Of a stretch of DNA of 48,253 nucleotides, positions 18,117 to 41,831 are shown in pieces; the stretch's first letter is position 1, and the number at the start of each line of letters is the position of its first letter. The DNA lies in the NCBI GenBank assembly GCA_945867435.1, contig CAMBIK010000003.1:1-48253 (forward strand), written 5' to 3'. The translations under genes and the position numbers were made by a program. This DNA is from Klebsiella pneumoniae. GTDB lineage: Bacteria > Myxococcota_A > UBA796 > SXON01. The notes beneath the pieces are model-generated. The model was not told where the DNA came from and ran no database searches. It saw only the letters and a program-made list of their open reading frames with translations.

Positions 18117-19973
18117 ATGAGCCTCCAAGAGCAGGCGGATGCGCTGCCCACCACCCCCGGCGTGTACCTGTTCAAGGATGAAGGCGGCGGCGTGCTCTAT
18201 GTGGGCAAGGCCGGCAACCTGCGCAGCCGGGTGCGACAATACCTGAGCGGGAACGACGAGCGCTTCATGGTGCGCTTCCTCGTCGCCGCGGCGAGGCGGG
18301 TCGATGTCGTTCCGGTTGGCAGCGAGAAGGAGTCTTTGCTTCTTGAGAACTCGCTGATCAAACAGCACAGGCCGCGCTACAACGTGCAGCTGCGGGACGA
18401 CAAGCAGTTCCTCCGCATCCGGCTCGACCCGACCCAAGCCTGGCCGCGGCTCACCACCAGTCGCAAGCCGCGGCCCGACGGCGCGAAGTACTTCGGACCG
18501 TACCCTTCGGCCACGGGCGCTCGGCACGCCCTGGCCTTCATCCAGCGCCACTTTGCCCTGCGCACTTGCTCGGATGCCGTGCTCAACAGCCGCATGCGGC
18601 CCTGCCTGCTTTACCAGATGAAGCGATGTGTTGCCCCATGTGTCGGTCTCGTCAGCGAACCCGACTACGCCGAGCTCGTGGAGGACGCCGCGCTCGCGCT
18701 GGCGGGCCGGGACCGGGAGCTGCTGCCAAGGCTACAGCTGCGGATGGAGGCGCTCTCCGACTCGGAGAATTTCGAGGGTGCCGCGCGCATTCGTGACGCA
18801 ATCCACGCGATTTCCACGGCCACCCAGCGGCAGGTGGTGGCCGACGCACGCGGTGACACACGCGACACATGGGGGCTGTATCGCGAAGCCGACCGGGGCG
18901 TCATGGCGTGCCTGCCCACCCGCGAAGGCCAGGTTCTTGAGCCCTTCGTGTTCCCGTTCGAGGGTGAGGTCGGGGATGACGGGGAGCTGCTTTCCGGGGT
19001 GCTCAACGCCTGGTACGACGGCGACCGCGACATCCCCAAAGAGGTTCTAGTGCCGCAGGTTCTTGCCGACGCCGACGCGCTCTCCGAGGTGCTGCGGGAT
19101 CGCAAGGGGTCCAAGGTGCGCCTCACCGCACCCCAGCGGGGGGATGGGGCGAAGCTGCTGGTCATCGCCGCTGCGACGGCGCGTACCCGGTTCCTCACGA
19201 CCCACTCGGCTGTCGAGCGCAGCGCCCGGGCGCTCACGGGGCTGGCCGAGCTGCTCGGTCTGGACGGCCCGCCCTGGCGAATCGAGTGCTTCGACAACAG
19301 CAATCTTCTTGGGGATGACCCGGTGGCCAGCCAGGTGGTGTTTGTGGATGGCCGGCCGGCCAAGGCGGAGTATCGCCGGTACCATGTCAAGACGGTCGTG
19401 GGTGCCGACGACTACGCGACCATGCGCGAGATCCTGGGCCGCAGGCTGCGCCGCGCGGCGGAGGAGGGCGAGTTTCCCGATTTGCTCGTGGTGGATGGCG
19501 GCCGCGGCCAGCTTTCGGCCGCCCAGCAGGTGCTCCGCGAGCTTGGCTTCGAAGATCAGCCGGTCATCGGCCTTTCCAAGCCGCGCACGGAGCGCGCTCG
19601 CGGGGACCGGGAGGCCACCGACAAGATCGTGGTGCCGGGCCGGGATGAGCCCATCCTGCTCCGCGCGGACGACCCCGCGCTGCGCCTTTTGCAGCAGATC
19701 CGCGACGAGGCCCACCGCTTTGCGATCGGCTTTCATCGTCAGGAACGCTCGAAGACTCGGCTCACCAGCGTGCTCGACGACGTGCCGGGAATCGGCCGGC
19801 AACGTCGAATCAAGCTGCTCCGGCACTTTGGGTCGCTGTCGGCCCTGCGCGCCGCCGCGGAGGCGGAGATCGCGGCGGTGCCCGGCTTCGGACCTACTCA
19901 GGCCGCGCGGCTGTTCGCGGTGTTGCATCCGCCGGCAGGTATCGGTGGCCGGCCGGTCGCGGATGGTGCATGA
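18117..19973 (+). CDS. uvrC: Excinuclease ABC subunit C
   Basis: GIY-YIG (PGVY...YVGKA.NLR.RV), Cys cluster, RIECFDNS, DDY, VDGGRGQL, RDEAHRFA, HhH. Alternative ATG at 18093. Confidence 0.97.
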   Translation: MSLQEQADALPTTPGVYLFKDEGGGVLYVGKAGNLRSRVRQYLSGNDERFMVRFLVAAARRVDVVPVGSEKESLLLENSLIKQHRPRYNVQLRDDKQFLRIRLDPTQAWPRLTTSRKPRPDGAKYFGPYPSATGARHALAFIQRHFALRTCSDAVLNSRMRPCLLYQMKRCVAPCVGLVSEPDYAELVEDAALALAGRDRELLPRLQLRMEALSDSENFEGAARIRDAIHAISTATQRQVVADARGDTRDTWGLYREADRGVMACLPTREGQVLEPFVFPFEGEVGDDGELLSGVLNAWYDGDRDIPKEVLVPQVLADADALSEVLRDRKGSKVRLTAPQRGDGAKLLVIAAATARTRFLTTHSAVERSARALTGLAELLGLDGPPWRIECFDNSNLLGDDPVASQVVFVDGRPAKAEYRRYHVKTVVGADDYATMREILGRRLRRAAEEGEFPDLLVVDGGRGQLSAAQQVLRELGFEDQPVIGLSKPRTERARGDREATDKIVVPGRDEPILLRADDPALRLLQQIRDEAHRFAIGFHRQERSKTRLTSVLDDVPGIGRQRRIKLLRHFGSLSALRAAAEAEIAAVPGFGPTQAARLFAVLHPPAGIGGRPVADGA

Positions 19974-20036: not shown

Positions 20037-20639
20037 CTACTTCCCGAACACGGTCTGGCAGTCCTCAAGCACCTGCGCCGGATGCACGCCGACCGATACT
20101 GAGTCGTACTCGACCAGAAGCACGCCTTCGGCATCGAGAATTCGGGTGACCCGGCTGGCCCAGGCCGCGGAGGTGTCCGCCGCCGCACCGTAGGTCACGG
20201 CGAGGGTCTTCTCCTCGTCCGTCCACAGCTGGAACGCCATGCCCTCTTCCTCGGCCCACGCCTCGTTTTTGCTGGGCGAGTCGAAGCTGATCCCGACAAT
20301 GGAGACCCCCAGCGCATCGAATTCACTTTGGCGGTCGCGGTACCCGCAACCTTCGGTGGTTCACCCAGAGGTCCCGGCGGCTGGGTAGAACCAGATGACG
20401 GTGGGGTGGCCGATGAGGTCGGGGCGGCTGCGTGCGCTCCCGTCCCGGTTCGTGGCGACAAACTCAGGGGCCGGCGTGCGCTCGGTGGCCCACTCTCCGT
20501 TCAGGTTGGTCGCGGTGTCCACCTCGGTGCCCTCGGCTGTGTCGGACGAATCCGCGAGAGGGCCGGAGTCAGCGGCGGAGTCAGAGGCGGTGTCAGGGGC
20601 TTCAGTGAAGGCGCACGACGCGAGCAACAGGAGGGTCAT
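20037..20639 (-). CDS. Selenocysteine-containing BCP/PrxQ peroxiredoxin, lipoprotein (200 aa, UGA at 20361-20363)
   Basis: The track ORFs 20361-20639 and 20037-20240 share a frame. Reading through TGA gives WFYPAAGTSG-U-TTEGC...IVGISFD...LWTD...RVTRILD, matching BCP YFYPKxxTPGCTxEAC. A SECIS follows. Confidence 0.92.
20333..20351 (-). promoter_or_regulatory. Bacterial SECIS element
   Basis: 9 nt after UGA: GGUUGCG-GGUAC-CGCGACC stem-loop with GU in the apical loop, resembling E. coli fdhF GGUUGCAGGUCUGCACC. Confidence 0.82.
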
Positions 20640-20688
20640 TCGGAGCCACTAACCGACCGCCAGCCCAGCCTTGGGGTAGCTTGGGCCG

Positions 20689-23600
20689 ATGCACGAGGTC
20701 CGCCCCTCCAAACTCTGCCTGTGGACCCTGATCTTCGCGGTCTCTTGCGGCGACTCCCTGCCCACCTCTCCAGATCCGGTTGGGGCGGATTCTGCCGACC
20801 CATCCCCCCAGGGCGCGATTCGCATCAACGAAGTCATGACGAAGAACACCGGAAGTTCGGAAGATGGGGCCGGCGATGCCAGCGACTGGATCGAACTTTA
20901 CAACGCGGGTGAAACGGCCGTGGACCTCGCGGGGTGGAGGCTGAGCGCGGGCGGCGAGGAGGCCACGGCCCTCGTATTAGAAAATACCAAGCTGTTGCCT
21001 GGAAACTTCGTGCTTATTTGGGCCTCAGGGAAAGGCGTGGACGGGGCGGCCGGGGAGCTCCACGCAGCGTTCAAGTTGGCCAGCGCCGGGGTCACGGTCG
21101 TGCTTCACTCGCCCGACGGGGAGGAGGCCGATCGCCTGGTGGTTCCTGCCTTGGACGACGACGTGAGCTACGGGCTGGACGAGCCGGTCACCGAGGCGAC
21201 GCTCCTGGCCGCCGGTTCGACTGGCACGTTGATGGACGCCCCAACGGGGGACTGGACCGCCCCGAGCTTCGACGATGCCGCGTGGCATCCCATCATCCTG
21301 CCTGTGGGCTTCGATGGGAGCGTCACGGGCGGGGAACCTGCAGAACGCGCGCTTGAGCGGCCCACGACGCAGTCCAGCGACTACCCCGGGTTTACCGGTG
21401 CCGAGGCCGTGGATGGCGACCCGAACACCTTCTCTCACACCGGCACCGGCGACTTCGAACCCTGGTGGCAGGTCGAGCTCGATGCCGACTACGCCATCTC
21501 CCAAGTTCAGCTCGTGAACCGCTACGGTTGCTGCCCTGAACGGCTCTACAACATCGTTGTAAGCGTGCTCGCGGAAGATGGCCGTGCGGTGTGGGCTAGC
21601 GATGTCCAGAACCCGGTGGCCGAGGGTGAGGCCCCCGTGGCACCCGACCAGGTGATCACGCTGCAGGTCCCCGGGGGGCCGATTGGGCGGTCGGTGCGCG
21701 TCGCAAAGACGGCCGTGAACGGTTCGGCCTCCAGCGAGTGGCTCTCGCTCGCCGACGTTACCGTGACCGGCACCCCCGCCGCCCCGTACAGCGACGACAT
21801 CACGACCGACATCGACATGTGGGTGGATTCTGTCATCATCGGCCTCCGAGTTGCATTTGTGATGGTAGCGGAGCGACCGACACGCGCTGTCCTCACCCTC
21901 GACTACGACGACGGCTTCCTTGCGAGTGTGGACGGCGCCGAGGTCGCCTCCGGCAACGCAGGTGCCCCGATCGAACACGCCGCGGGTCAACCGGAGCGCT
22001 TCCCGGTCGACCTCCGCTCGCTAACGGCGGGGGCCCATCTGTTCGCGCTCCGTGGGGACAATGTCTCGGCCAACGACGACGACTTCCTGATTGCGCCCAC
22101 CCTGACGGCCCAGTGGTTCACCCCCGGCGACCCGGGCTACTTCACGGTGGCGACGCCCGGCGAACCCAACGGCGAAGCCGGAAAGGGCGCGCTTGCCCCG
22201 CCGACCTTCGATCCGCCCCGAGGCTTCTACAGTTCGGTTCAGGCCCTCACCGTTTCGGCCCCGGCCGGCGCCACTCTGGTGTACACCCTCGATGGCACCC
22301 CACCCACCGACGTCAACGGATCGCGACTCTACCCGGCCTCCCCGGCGGCCGTCGCGACCCTAACGATGGATGTCCCGACCACCGCCATCGTGCGAGCGGT
22401 CGCCCTCCGCGACGGCTGGGACGACAGCCGGATTGCGACGCACACCTACCTTTTTCTGGAAGATGTGCTCGCGCAGTCCTCCCGCCCTGCCGGGTTCCCC
22501 TCGACCTGGGAAAGTCAATCGGAAGGCAGCTACACCGCCGACTACGGGATGGACCCGGAGGTGGCGGAGGACCCGCGGTACCGCGCCGAACTGCTCGAAG
22601 GGCTGCGAGAGATCCCGACGCTCTCCATCGTGACCGGCATCGACGACCTCTTCGGCGCCAACGGCCTGTACGCGAACAGTGCTTCCCGCGGCGATGCCTG
22701 GGAACGTCGGGTTTCGCTGGAGTGGATCGAACCCGATGGTTCGACCGGCTTCGCCGAGGATGCCAAGTTGCAGGTGCACGGCTACGGCTGGCGCTACCAT
22801 TCCTCGACCCTCAAGCACAGCTTCCGCATCCAGTTCCAGGCGGAGTACGGGGCGTCGAAGCTGGAATGGCCGATGTTCGCAGACGCCCCCGTTGACCGCT
22901 TCGACAGCATCGTTCTCCGGGCGGGGGGCTCCAAGACCTGGCTTGACTTCCGTGACCCGGCCCAGGCGCAGTACCTCCACGATGCCTTCGCTCGCGACAC
23001 GGCGCGTGACATGGGCAAGGTGGACGGTCACGCCACCTACGTTCACCTGTACCTGAACGGTCTGTACTGGGGCCTTTACATGCCGGTCGAGCGTCCAGAC
23101 GCTGGCTTTGCTGAGGAGTATTTTGGTGGGGACGAGGCGAACTACGACGCCATCAATCGGCGGACCACCACCACGGAGGCCATCGATGGCGACCTGGAGG
23201 CCTACAACACGATGATCGCCCTCGCCGATGGCGACATGACCACCGCCGAAGGTTTGGCGGCGTTGGAAGCCTATCTCGACGTAGACGACCTGATCGACTG
23301 GATGCTCATCCACCAGTACACCACCAACCGCGACGGTCCTTGCTGCTTCGAAGGCAACAACCAACGAGGGATTCGCAAGCGAGAAGTCGGCGCGCAATAT
23401 CAGTTCTTCGTCTGGGACATGGAGTATTCGCTGTGGGAGGCGAGCGACGCCACCAACGTGGATGTGAACGTGGCGGGGCACGCGTCGCACGCCTACCGAC
23501 AGCTTTGGGACAACGCCGAGTTTCGCGAGCGATACTCCGCTCGAGCCCATGTGTTGCTCACCGGTGCTGGTGCGCTGACTCCGGATGCCGCTTCCGCACG

Positions 23601-23799
23601 CTACGAAGCGCGTGCCGACGAGATCTACGCCGCGCTCCTCGCAGAATCGGCGCGATGGGGTGATACATATCGGGCTGTTCCCTACACCCGCGATGTGGAG
23701 TGGCTGGAGGAATACAATCGGTTGCAGGATGAGTATTTCCCCTATCGCACCGACTTTTTGATCGAGCAGCTGCGCGCGGTGGGGCTTTACGACGAGTGA
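20689..23799 (+). CDS. CotH kinase family lipoprotein with lamin-tail, fucolectin/F5-8-like and Fn3-associated domains
   Basis: AVS-C lipobox; INEV...DWIELYN (LTD); AVDG...SHT...PWWQVEL...NR..CC.ERL (FTP lectin); YTLDG.PP; K.SFR, LYLNG.YWGLY..VE, N.D, WDME (CotH). Confidence 0.92.
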   Translation: MHEVRPSKLCLWTLIFAVSCGDSLPTSPDPVGADSADPSPQGAIRINEVMTKNTGSSEDGAGDASDWIELYNAGETAVDLAGWRLSAGGEEATALVLENTKLLPGNFVLIWASGKGVDGAAGELHAAFKLASAGVTVVLHSPDGEEADRLVVPALDDDVSYGLDEPVTEATLLAAGSTGTLMDAPTGDWTAPSFDDAAWHPIILPVGFDGSVTGGEPAERALERPTTQSSDYPGFTGAEAVDGDPNTFSHTGTGDFEPWWQVELDADYAISQVQLVNRYGCCPERLYNIVVSVLAEDGRAVWASDVQNPVAEGEAPVAPDQVITLQVPGGPIGRSVRVAKTAVNGSASSEWLSLADVTVTGTPAAPYSDDITTDIDMWVDSVIIGLRVAFVMVAERPTRAVLTLDYDDGFLASVDGAEVASGNAGAPIEHAAGQPERFPVDLRSLTAGAHLFALRGDNVSANDDDFLIAPTLTAQWFTPGDPGYFTVATPGEPNGEAGKGALAPPTFDPPRGFYSSVQALTVSAPAGATLVYTLDGTPPTDVNGSRLYPASPAAVATLTMDVPTTAIVRAVALRDGWDDSRIATHTYLFLEDVLAQSSRPAGFPSTWESQSEGSYTADYGMDPEVAEDPRYRAELLEGLREIPTLSIVTGIDDLFGANGLYANSASRGDAWERRVSLEWIEPDGSTGFAEDAKLQVHGYGWRYHSSTLKHSFRIQFQAEYGASKLEWPMFADAPVDRFDSIVLRAGGSKTWLDFRDPAQAQYLHDAFARDTARDMGKVDGHATYVHLYLNGLYWGLYMPVERPDAGFAEEYFGGDEANYDAINRRTTTTEAIDGDLEAYNTMIALADGDMTTAEGLAALEAYLDVDDLIDWMLIHQYTTNRDGPCCFEGNNQRGIRKREVGAQYQFFVWDMEYSLWEASDATNVDVNVAGHASHAYRQLWDNAEFRERYSARAHVLLTGAGALTPDAASARYEARADEIYAALLAESARWGDTYRAVPYTRDVEWLEEYNRLQDEYFPYRTDFLIEQLRAVGLYDE

Positions 23800-33987: not shown

Positions 33988-34404
33988 ATGCTCCTGCTCA
34001 TCCTCGCCTGCTCGGACCGCGGAACAAGCCCTCCGCCCCCGGTGCCCGCCGCGCCCGTGGGGATGGATGGACTCGGCGGCGGCACCACCACCATGGGCAT
34101 TCCCATCCCCCCCCGGGCACCGCCGCCTCCTCGGAAAAGCGAGGTCTGCCCTGAATGGGCGGATGGCGTCGTGGTGCCATCCGCTCTCTCCATCGTCGAG
34201 TGTACGGCCGGTCGGGTGGCCATGACCGGGCTCGCAGACGTGGTGGCGGCGTGCGGGGAGGTCCACGCGGAACTAGTTCGGGCGGGTTGGGAGCAGCGTG
34301 CCGCCGGCGTGTTCAGGTACGAACTCACCCGCGGCTCCCGCAAGGCCGAGCTGTTTTGTGCCGAGACCCCGGCTGGAATCGTCGTTACTCTCGCCGCGGA
34401 GTAG
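33988..34404 (+). CDS. Hypothetical lipoprotein
   Basis: MLLLILA-C; Pro-rich linker; four further Cys; 3 nt after the msr stop. Confidence 0.72.
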   Translation: MLLLILACSDRGTSPPPPVPAAPVGMDGLGGGTTTMGIPIPPRAPPPPRKSEVCPEWADGVVVPSALSIVECTAGRVAMTGLADVVAACGEVHAELVRAGWEQRAAGVFRYELTRGSRKAELFCAETPAGIVVTLAAE

Positions 34405-40571: not shown

Positions 40572-41831
40572 TCATTCAACTACGTCGTCGATGCCCCTCG
40601 GCTCGATCAGGAATTGAGGCACATCGTCGTAGCTCGTGTAGTAGAGCGGGCCCGTGATGCTGGACCAGGTCGTGCCTGGCTCCGCCTCAATCTGCATGAA
40701 CAGGTTGTCGATGTACAGCCCACGGTCGGTGAGCACTGTGCCCCATTCATCGACCGAAACCGCGGTCAGCCCCTCGACCTGGATGAGCGCGGACTGCCAT
40801 GGCTCCCAGTCCGCCACGTCGGCAGGGACGGTCGAAACGGTGGGCTCCGCCACGCCGGTCTCCACCATCGTGCCCCCCCCAAACAAGCTGATCTCCATCA
40901 ACCCGTAGTAGTTGGAGACCGTGCCCGTCACGTCGAACGTCATGCCGGGCTCCCACCAGGTCCACCCTGCCGGGTCGTACACCACGATGCCGCTGGATTC
41001 GCCCCCCCCCGCGTCCTGTACGAAGAGGTACGTGCGGTCCTTGTCTTCGCCGAAGCTGGGGGCGGTCGAAACCACGCCGACCACCCGTACGGGGCCGCAT
41101 ACGCCATCGGTACGGATGCCGTGTACGGTGGTATCGACCGTTGCGCCCGGCCCGTAGCCGCCCAGGTCCGCGGCGGTCCGATTGTTCAAGGACCATGCTT
41201 CGTACTGGTAGAATACGATGCCCGTCACGCTGTCGAAGTGACCGCGGCAGTCGTAGTCGTTGTACATGAAGCCGTCGTCGAGGCCGATGCCAGCGGTGAG
41301 CATCCCCGTGCTGTAGGCGTTGATCGATTCCACGGTCTGGTCGGTCACGGTCACAGGCACGCTCTCCCACGCATCCCAATCCACGCCGACGCCATCCCCA
41401 AGGTCGGCGGGAGCGGGCAGAGTGCCCTGGCCGGTGCGTTCGATGGAGGAAGCATCCCCCACGACCAGCTCGGTCCACCCGAAGTAGTCGCTGATCTTGC
41501 CGCTGATGGTGACTTCGTCCCCCACCGCGAGCGAAAGTTCGCTTCCGAACTGACCCTGGGACCACACATAGAGGCCGCTGCGCTCGCCGCCCGCCGGGTC
41601 CTGGACGAAGAACCCGTCGGACTTGCCGCTGTCGGTGTCGGCGCGGGTCAAGGGCGAACTGACCAGGATGCCGGTCAGCGTGACCGTTTCGCCGTCACCC
41701 ACGTCGCCGTTGCGCACGTCGAAGATTGTTGCGCCGCCTCCGCCGCCTCCCGAGTCGCCGCCATCGGAAGCGGTGTCCGTGTCCTTTGCAACCGGATCGA
41801 GGCAGGCGGAAAGCGTGAAGAGGGCGAACAT
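40572..41831 (-). CDS. Lipoprotein with tandem YhcR-type OB-fold repeats
   Basis: GGAG RBS; LSA-C; two units FVQD..GGE.SG..V...G....V.G..S.Y.G..E...W..W(E/Q)S. Confidence 0.85.
   Translation of the reverse strand: MFALFTLSACLDPVAKDTDTASDGGDSGGGGGGATIFDVRNGDVGDGETVTLTGILVSSPLTRADTDSGKSDGFFVQDPAGGERSGLYVWSQGQFGSELSLAVGDEVTISGKISDYFGWTELVVGDASSIERTGQGTLPAPADLGDGVGVDWDAWESVPVTVTDQTVESINAYSTGMLTAGIGLDDGFMYNDYDCRGHFDSVTGIVFYQYEAWSLNNRTAADLGGYGPGATVDTTVHGIRTDGVCGPVRVVGVVSTAPSFGEDKDRTYLFVQDAGGGESSGIVVYDPAGWTWWEPGMTFDVTGTVSNYYGLMEISLFGGGTMVETGVAEPTVSTVPADVADWEPWQSALIQVEGLTAVSVDEWGTVLTDRGLYIDNLFMQIEAEPGTTWSSITGPLYYTSYDDVPQFLIEPRGIDDVVE

Follow-up and report, generated by a model that had tools for sequence, protein, structure and literature searches.

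A stretch of 48,253 nucleotides (contig CAMBIK010000003.1, positions 1-48,253; hereafter the window) carries, at positions 20037-20639 of its minus strand, an unannotated gene for a peroxiredoxin. From the analyses described here, we conclude that this gene is real and not a pseudogene, and that it encodes a predicted membrane-tethered enzyme that would destroy peroxides, with a predicted selenocysteine (Sec) at its active site. The product would be a BCP/PrxQ-type peroxiredoxin in which a UGA codon is read as Sec, which is held in the cell envelope by a lipid anchor and which works through a selenenylsulfide cycle; we consider this model as a whole to be very probable. The window is part of a metagenome-assembled genome (MAG) of 301 contigs that is 76% complete (G000, the own genome in what follows).

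Translation of positions 20639 to 20037 with TGA read as Sec (U) yields a protein of 200 residues with a single U at codon 93 (TGA 20363-20361), in the context ..WFYPAAGTSG-U-TTEGCGYRD. An earlier note on this DNA, made from its letters alone, had placed the TGA exactly at the Cys of the peroxiredoxin motif PxxxTxxC and had described a further 107 open codons with a resolving Cys at +5, a GIS.D motif and an Arg within SRVT. The minus-strand translation bears out each of these points: 107 codons follow U93, C98 lies at +5, GISFD forms residues 116-120 and R163 falls within SRVT. A plus-strand reading of the same interval was rejected, as no gene is present there. The note had also held that standard annotation splits the gene, and this is what we find. 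A plain list of open reading frames (ORFs), in which TGA is a stop, cuts it into pieces of 92 and 67 residues, and the public record of the closest orthologue is a 111-residue 'hypothetical protein'. Full-length relatives in the protein database carry Cys and the name 'peroxiredoxin Q/BCP', and the closest Sec orthologues are present only as fragments of 111-113 residues. At the other end of the gene, an in-frame TAG stands three codons 5' of the ATG, and the N terminus therefore cannot be longer.

Two sets of relatives were used to follow codon 93. The first consisted of 40 genomes of the same genus, family or order, together with the own genome. An orthologue with an in-frame TGA was present in 35 of the 40 relatives, at 42-81% identity. 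Among the 41 matches with E values up to about 4e-30, own genome included, 39 have at least one TGA; the two exceptions are a fragment that starts past the site (G015:C12) and one G037 match that spans the site without any stop. For the second set, species-representative genomes were scanned, 123 relatives were found and 80 loci were kept, nearly all of them titled as uncultured Myxococcota or 'Deltaproteobacteria' MAGs and several from lakes, with some titles obviously mislabelled. In these 80 loci the column of codon 93 holds TGA in 68 and TGC in 12, and Cys is the residue in all 12 non-TGA homologues. Pairing of Cys with TGA across homologues had been put forward in the earlier note as a check on the Sec assignment, and it is clearly present. 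We infer from this pattern that selenium is inserted at codon 93.

The RNA downstream of the codon points the same way. The TGA is followed by a 9-nucleotide spacer, ACCACCGAA, and then by the hairpin RNA GGTTGCGGGTACCGCGACC (20351-20333), a candidate selenocysteine insertion sequence (SECIS). A hairpin starting 9 nucleotides after the UGA had been described in the earlier note, and it appears in both the minimum free energy and the centroid folds, either as an 8-bp stem with a 3-nucleotide loop or as 7 bp with a GGUAC loop. Codons +4 to +9 read GGT TGC GGG TAC/TTC CGC GAC in each of the 69 TGA forms (the 68 loci and the window), with zero synonymous variation, whereas the three spacer codons and the flanking invariant residues show a synonymous entropy of 0.75-1.7 bits. 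The 12 Cys forms have the same G-C-G-Y/F-R-D/E residues in mixed codons, with GGT in 1/12 and GGG in 1/12. Furthermore, the full 8-bp stem is formed by 65 of the 69 TGA forms versus 1 of the 12 TGC forms. This invariance is not an artefact of the search, because the only route to the TGA forms was the peptide pattern ..WFYP.., and this lies outside the hairpin. Judged by these alignments, the hairpin is under selection at the RNA level and is conserved together with the TGA only. A TGA and hairpin that varied freely among relatives would have suggested a nonsense pseudogene, as the earlier note pointed out; both are instead retained, the TGA in 68 of the 80 loci and the hairpin in the TGA forms. 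When the own genome was scanned for a second in-frame TGA with a near-copy of the hairpin, none was genuine; 12 other matches were rejected by inspection, all of them Arg-rich shadow frames.

The hairpin had been likened to the SECIS of Escherichia coli fdhF, and the comparison is a fair one. Both hairpins lie inside the ORF just past the UGA, and the 5' arm GGUUGC and the start of the loop, GGU, are common to both. The two differ in spacing, since the E. coli K-12 fdhF record has TGA, 11 nucleotides and then GGTTGCAGGTCTGCACC, against 9 nucleotides in the window. They also differ in the loop, which is GGUC in fdhF and GGUAC or GGUUC in the window's family. The bulged U that we take to be part of the fdhF structure stands where the window hairpin has a U-G pair.

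Machinery for Sec insertion is encoded in the own genome. Profile searches detected selA at 459.5 bits and selD at 389.4 bits, and tRNA-Sec was found at 65.2 bits and called SeC with anticodon tca by ARAGORN. selA is likewise present in 36 of the 40 relatives. Our first selB match was rejected as EF-Tu (and other GTPases) and was replaced by a search with the SelB wing domain, which identified a 158-residue open frame with SelB-wing_3 (60.5 bits) at the 5' edge of contig C136. With EF-Tu accounting for the initial match, the evidence for selB is confined to its C-terminal part. The prediction that selA, selB, selC and selD would be found elsewhere in the genome thus holds for selA, selD and tRNA-Sec, and for selB as a C-terminal fragment only. 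As a separate observation, SelD itself appears as a selenoprotein in this genome (G000:C53:12798-13721; L008), with an in-frame TGA in the context ..SHGGG-U-GCKLGP...

Contigs from other studies were also compared with the window. DNA contigs X3 and X6, from two other studies, are letter-identical to it over the TGA and the hairpin and carry TGA, not the TGC or TGT that would have exposed a sequencing error. Additionally, the TGA is spanned by X15 (20070-20457) and X16 (20236-20397), contigs from two metatranscriptome studies, and all differences between these two and the window lie outside the TGA and hairpin. Jointly the RNA contigs span 20070-20633, and none extends beyond the gene; the rest of the stretch is not covered by RNA contigs, from which we conclude nothing. 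Two of their ends, at 20622 and 20633, fall short of the ATG at 20639 and give only a weak hint of where the transcript starts.

The protein matches Pfam AhpC-TSA (PF00578) with 85.6 bits against a cut-off of 26 (E 3.5e-24), over residues 55-174 and across the TGA. The top sequence matches in the PDB are BCP/PrxQ proteins whose peroxidatic Cys aligns on U93 (5enu, 5epf); the aligned segment of 5epf at this position is ..FYPAAMTPGCTKEAC... Residues P86, T90, U93, C98 and R163 are invariant in 20/20 orthologues (alignment A1), and the motif around C98, ..T.EGCG.., occurs in 80/80 further loci, as for a resolving Cys of the CxxxxC type. An AlphaFold model built from 20 orthologues reached a predicted local distance difference test (pLDDT) score of 85.6, with means of 52-57 for residues 1-40 and at least 86 for the rest. 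The top PDB matches of the model in Foldseek were Sulfolobus solfataricus Bcp4 and Bcp1, Xanthomonas campestris PrxQ and Mycobacterium tuberculosis BcpB, with template modelling scores, normalised to the target, of about 0.8 and sequence identities of 24-30%. Since BCP/PrxQ proteins are closest by both sequence and fold and the active site is invariant, we conclude that the protein is a BCP/PrxQ-type peroxiredoxin of the CxxxxC kind and forms a distinct clade within that subfamily. Near the C terminus, Cys194 (..VLEDC..) gives way to other residues in part of the family (..ADA.., ..EDI..); this residue could serve as a second resolving or relay thiol.

The N terminus suggests an envelope protein. 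The lipobox L-A-S-C spans residues 6-9, and its Cys9 is invariant in 20/20 aligned orthologues. Among the 80 further loci a heuristic recognised a lipobox in 71; the nine misses include L052, which has FSTGC by eye, L088, whose start coincides with the end of a contig, and two signal-less Cys forms from other phyla, L113 and L115. The '9-aa lipoprotein signal' of the earlier note stands as regards the lipobox, although only 8 residues precede the Cys. The acidic linker that it described is evident from the composition of residues after Cys9; the linker is also rich in Asp, Ser, Thr and Ala, is disordered in the model, and its acidic character is kept across orthologues. In the window's genus and near kin the signal has 7-9 uncharged residues (MTLLLLAS|C, MMILLMA|C) and often has a stop codon upstream that sets its limit, whereas more distant members carry textbook signals with K/R and a long hydrophobic (h) region: MRLTIPFISLLGVFALGC, MMKYFSILLLLTLILLIGMVGC and MRTALFALLLLGC. 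The genome also has the means to process lipoproteins, with two LspA (Peptidase_A8) and four LGT matches over the cut-offs, on contigs C60, C205, C121, C71 and C123; one lspA-lgt pair is adjacent on C60.

Signals of this kind recur across the genome. We defined an ultra-short signal as M plus 6-10 hydrophobic residues followed by a lipobox Cys, uncharged throughout. Such signals begin 99 of 10,666 ORFs (at least 120 residues, first possible start) versus 65 of 27,346 internal Met positions, a control that itself includes true starts. The most frequent signal length is 8 residues, and K/R is absent throughout the 7-9 class. Many of the 99 are large proteins with Asp/Thr/Ser/Gly-rich linkers after the signal. 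With 99 such N termini in the genome, the short signal of the peroxiredoxin is credible, being the norm in this genome rather than a truncation. The window itself contains further examples besides the peroxiredoxin gene, at 33988 (+), MLLLILACSDRG.., and at 41831 (-), MFALFTLSACLDP... Standard lipoprotein predictors probably miss these ultra-short signals, and 'unusually short' was not used of lipoprotein signals among the matches listed in our literature search. Overall, the lipoprotein assignment is likely to be correct, and we predict export of the protein and lipidation on Cys9.

The start region shows a related peculiarity. In the window's clade, GGyTA stands at -15 to -11 before the ATG, without a Shine-Dalgarno sequence (20640-20654; same place in L036-L106), and more distant orthologues have GGAGG-type sites in place of GGyTA. 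Genome-wide, TA at -12/-11 is found in 20 of 70 short-lipobox ATG ORFs versus 247 of 3388 other ATG-first ORFs. From its position and sequence, GGyTA looks like the -10 promoter element of a leaderless mRNA, which would explain why an in-frame TAG or TAA lies exactly at codon -4 in many loci.

Several observations weigh against the model and need to be set beside this evidence. The relatives are kin and do not count as independent samples. The folding energy of the 71-nucleotide segment does not stand out from that of shuffled sequences (z = 0.12; 99 of 200 shuffles fold as well). Energy alone proves nothing here, because the DNA is GC-rich and shuffles fold equally; it is conservation that carries the case. 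No compensatory covariation could be counted, the hairpin being invariant, and an Rfam scan of 20200-20450 with E values up to 10 returned no SECIS family, only one spurious match to a long non-coding RNA. Two relatives with TGA forms, G009 and G011, gave no selA match, both being fragmented MAGs, and the GTPase part of selB was not found in the 76%-complete MAG, which yielded only the C-terminal fragment at a contig edge. On the side of the protein, the highest-scoring NCBIfam model, Bcp thiol peroxidase (NF006960), gave 71.6 bits, under the equivalog cut-off of 140, and the Deinococcus PrxQ model (NF053650) reached 55.9 bits against a cut-off of 260. The RNA contigs are only a hint that the gene is transcribed as a unit, because RNA libraries can contain DNA, and the ends and levels of transcripts cannot be read from contigs. 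No thioredoxin-like or DsbD-like gene adjoins the peroxiredoxin gene, and synteny is weak across 81 loci (no search directed at TlpA was made), so the reductant is the weakest link of the model. Finally, classical lipoprotein rules call for a charged n-region with K/R and a longer h-region, and the signal of 8 residues, with no K/R and 5-6 hydrophobic residues, fails them.

This last point leads to the alternative that deserves most attention, namely a true Sec-peroxiredoxin that is cytoplasmic or unlipidated, whose N terminus is the relic, in degenerate form, of a lipoprotein signal of its ancestors and has ceased to direct export. In its favor are a signal of only M plus seven residues before the Cys, without K/R, that the upstream TAG prevents from being extended, and the direct access to thioredoxin that a cytoplasmic location would give. 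A relic would not, however, be expected to keep Cys9 in 20/20 orthologues together with an acidic, disordered tether, and the canonical signals of distant members argue for export, as do the 99 of 10,666 ORF starts that share this signal type against 65 of 27,346 internal Met positions, with their length peak at 8. Cytosolic Cys-type BCP paralogues without signals are, moreover, already present in the genome (C138, C92, C63). We regard a cytoplasmic or unlipidated enzyme as unlikely.

Proteins of the AhpC-TSA/Redoxin fold that are anchored in the envelope are usually reductases such as TlpA, ResA and CcmG. The window protein might thus be a TlpA/ResA-like thiol:disulfide oxidoreductase, to be placed among the 'Prx-like thiol:disulfide oxidoreductase' selenoproteins. 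The Pfam Redoxin family does match the protein, and 'Prx-like' selenoproteins with UxxC are known (PMC1088965). The motif in the window is, however, PxxxTxxU with U-x4-C and not (W)UxxC, the peroxiredoxin tetrad Pro/Thr/Sec/Arg is invariant, and by sequence as well as by fold the protein matches BCP/PrxQ peroxidases best. An oxidoreductase of this sort is therefore very improbable, and a peroxiredoxin remains the preferred assignment.

The remaining two explanations deny that selenium is involved, and both are, in our judgement, excluded. If the TGA were a terminator, the result of a nonsense mutation or a sequencing error, the 107 downstream codons would be a decaying remnant; standard gene calling does stop at the TGA and public records list the closest orthologue at 111 residues, but the TGA occupies the same column in 68/80 loci and 35/40 relatives, is identical in two independent DNA studies, coexists with Sec machinery and is followed by a conserved protein (C98 and R163 invariant) in which synonymous sites vary. 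A UGA read as another amino acid (Trp or Gly in an altered code) or by near-cognate suppression would fit open frames under any sense reading, and Cys can be inserted at UGA in selenium-poor conditions, yet the adjoining uvrC ends in TGA at 19971-19973, as do other ORFs of the window, so that TGA is a normal stop in this genome, a peroxiredoxin needs Cys or Sec in a column that is Cys in 12/12 non-TGA homologues, the hairpin co-varies with the presence of TGA, and tRNA-Sec, selA and selD are present.

It is established for peroxiredoxins that the peroxidatic residue attacks the peroxide, that a resolving Cys forms a bond with it and that a thioredoxin-fold reductant regenerates the enzyme. On this basis the selenoprotein would work as follows. 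SelB with Sec-tRNA(Sec) would read UGA 93, directed by the in-ORF hairpin (codons 97-103) 9 nucleotides downstream. The precursor MTLLLLAS|C would be exported and most likely lipidated on Cys9, and the mature protein would hang from the membrane in the cell envelope by an acidic, disordered tether of about 40 residues. There Sec93 would reduce H2O2 or organic hydroperoxides and become a selenenic acid, with which Cys98, located in the same helix five residues further along, would form an intramolecular selenenylsulfide. That bond would then be reduced by a thioredoxin-like protein of the periplasm, itself fed by a transporter of the DsbD/ScsB/CcdA type, as proposed by analogy with Caulobacter PprX, an exported BCP/PrxQ peroxidase that is reduced by periplasmic TlpA, itself fed by ScsB, for which DsbD can substitute (PMC3322552). 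The own genome has one match to the DsbD_TM family, of 55.5 bits, at the edge of a contig. Activity as a peroxidase, formation of the selenenylsulfide and the nature of the reductant are predicted from the family and its chemistry. More tentatively, with a chance that we put somewhat below even, uncultured Myxococcota of lakes may share this envelope selenoenzyme across the clade: a lipid-anchored Sec-PrxQ exported by the Sec translocon, which would scavenge peroxides beyond the cytoplasm, be recharged by a DsbD/ScsB-type system and probably be translated from a leaderless mRNA. Its 8-residue signal would then be the norm of a lineage-wide lipoproteome that current rules do not cover.

Features of the peroxiredoxin gene region in the window (positions on the forward strand)
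Feature	Position	Strand	Basis or remarks
Whole predicted selenoprotein gene	20037..20639	-	ATG 20639-20637; 200 sense codons including UGA-Sec; TAG stop 20039-20037
Predicted signal peptide M1-S8 (MTLLLLAS), uncharged, very short	20616..20639	-	Upstream in-frame TAG bounds the ORF
Lipobox Cys9 (L-A-S-C, residues 6-9), predicted lipidated mature N terminus	20613..20615	-	Conservation
Acidic low-complexity linker, about residues 10-50, predicted flexible tether	20490..20612	-	D/E fraction 0.24, K/R 0; low pLDDT
Peroxiredoxin (AhpC-TSA) domain, residues 55-174	20118..20477	-	Pfam, PDB alignment, model, Foldseek
UGA codon 93, predicted Sec at the peroxidatic position of PxxxTxxC	20361..20363	-	TGA/TGC pairing, alignment to BCPs
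Candidate SECIS hairpin GGUUGCGGGUACCGCGACC	20333..20351	-	Codons 97-102 and first base of 103 (G C G Y R D); includes resolving Cys98 codon 20348-20346
Catalytic Arg163 codon	20151..20153	-	Invariant 20/20
Cys194 codon (..LEDC..)	20058..20060	-	At least 90% conserved in A1; C-terminal helix 187-198 in the model
Intergenic region, divergent, 49 bp	20640..20688	.	On the gene's strand, GGTTAG at -15..-10 before ATG; no Shine-Dalgarno sequence

The gene lies between uvrC, which is convergent, and a divergent gene for a CotH-domain protein. The latter (20689-23799, plus strand) starts 49 bp from the peroxiredoxin ATG and encodes 1036 residues with Lamin-tail, F5/8 type C, chitobiase C-terminal and CotH kinase domains; its N terminus is of the classical lipobox type (..LIFAVSCGDS..). 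A conserved redox partner was sought by clustering the neighboring ORFs of 81 loci, and no genuine neighbor cluster exceeded 13 loci. Large clusters that did emerge were rejected as partners, being antisense shadow ORFs over the peroxiredoxin gene itself.

The history of the family was approached with a quick tree, for which three Cys forms of other phyla that lack a signal served as the root; it was built from few columns, and many of its forks are unresolved. The tree groups the 78 sequences of the lipoprotein clade with full support and places 9 Cys forms in four groups among 69 Sec forms. It needs at least five changes between Sec and Cys, of which well-supported branches force only one. 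A single origin of the Sec forms can be argued because the SECIS is identical in all of them, and some Cys forms look like reversions when their sequences are compared, L056 being one in which the codons have stayed near those of the hairpin. Apart from this clade, a second and distant AhpC-TSA paralogue, 27-31% identical to the query, has one in-frame TGA in six relatives (G019:C506, G015:C558, G007:C334, G009:C350, G008:C242 and G011:C9; none is listed for G000). By its sequence, it may represent another Sec-peroxiredoxin family.

These results bear on annotation as well as on biology. Public records mis-annotate the clade as truncated hypothetical proteins, and for this reason a dedicated profile combined with a SECIS rule would recover a widespread selenoprotein of freshwater Myxococcota. 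The clade also offers a natural comparison between 69 Sec forms with one invariant SECIS and 9 nested Cys forms that have lost it, which should help to calibrate bacterial SECIS predictors and to study the exchange of Sec for Cys. The ultra-short signals may be of wider importance, since much of this organism's lipoproteome would escape standard predictors.

Sec-peroxiredoxins as such are not new. Members with TxxU (COG1225/PF00578) have been described in publications from 2001-2005 onward and are included in a review of 2026 (PMC13188914), and they have been tabulated for many Deltaproteobacteria, with three in the myxobacterium Anaeromyxobacter dehalogenans (PMC1794560). The window protein shares with this TxxU family the PF00578 fold and Sec in place of the peroxidatic Cys in PxxxTxxU. 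The survey text, to which the comparison was confined without supplements or sequences, mentions no signal peptide or lipid anchor on Sec-peroxiredoxins. Within the text consulted, 'lipoprotein' and 'signal peptide' are absent from the review PMC13188914, and 'signal peptide' and 'periplasm' from the 2005 survey. Our literature search, which covered publications without their supplements, returned no Sec-PrxQ lipoprotein and no selenoproteins of Myxococcota MAGs. Lipoproteins are part of at least one selenoprotein system, since the SAO system has the lipoprotein components SaoX and SaoC (bioRxiv 10.1101/2022.07.06.499078).

Among individual enzymes, PrxU of Eubacterium acidaminophilum (NCBIfam NF040737) is reportedly an experimentally characterized Sec-peroxiredoxin. 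The window protein scores only 31.4 bits against the PrxU cut-off of 270 and belongs to another peroxiredoxin subfamily; it is not a PrxU orthologue. It is closer to E. coli Bcp and the solved BCP/PrxQ structures (5iiz of X. campestris PrxQ, 5epf of M. tuberculosis BcpB, and S. solfataricus Bcp1 and Bcp4), with which it has PxxxTxxC...R in common, and 5epf further shares the CxxxxC spacing (..CTKEAC..). In contrast to the window protein, these are cytosolic Cys enzymes without an N-terminal extension.

The nearest parallel in location is PprX. Exported PrxQ has been in print since 2012 (PMC3322552), and PprX resembles the window protein in belonging to the BCP/PrxQ subfamily and, as is predicted for the window protein, has an N-terminal export signal and works in the cell envelope. 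PprX is, however, a Cys enzyme whose 20-residue signal is not called a lipoprotein signal in the published account and whose resolving Cys lies elsewhere (PMC3322552); the predicted Sec, the lipobox, the acidic tether and the resolving Cys at +5 belong to the window protein. It is plausible that, with Sec-peroxiredoxins already known, the exported and lipid-anchored form is a new variant. If the envelope location is true, this variant would extend the peroxide defence of the envelope, which has received little study and is so far known from the Cys enzyme PprX, by a branch that depends on selenium.

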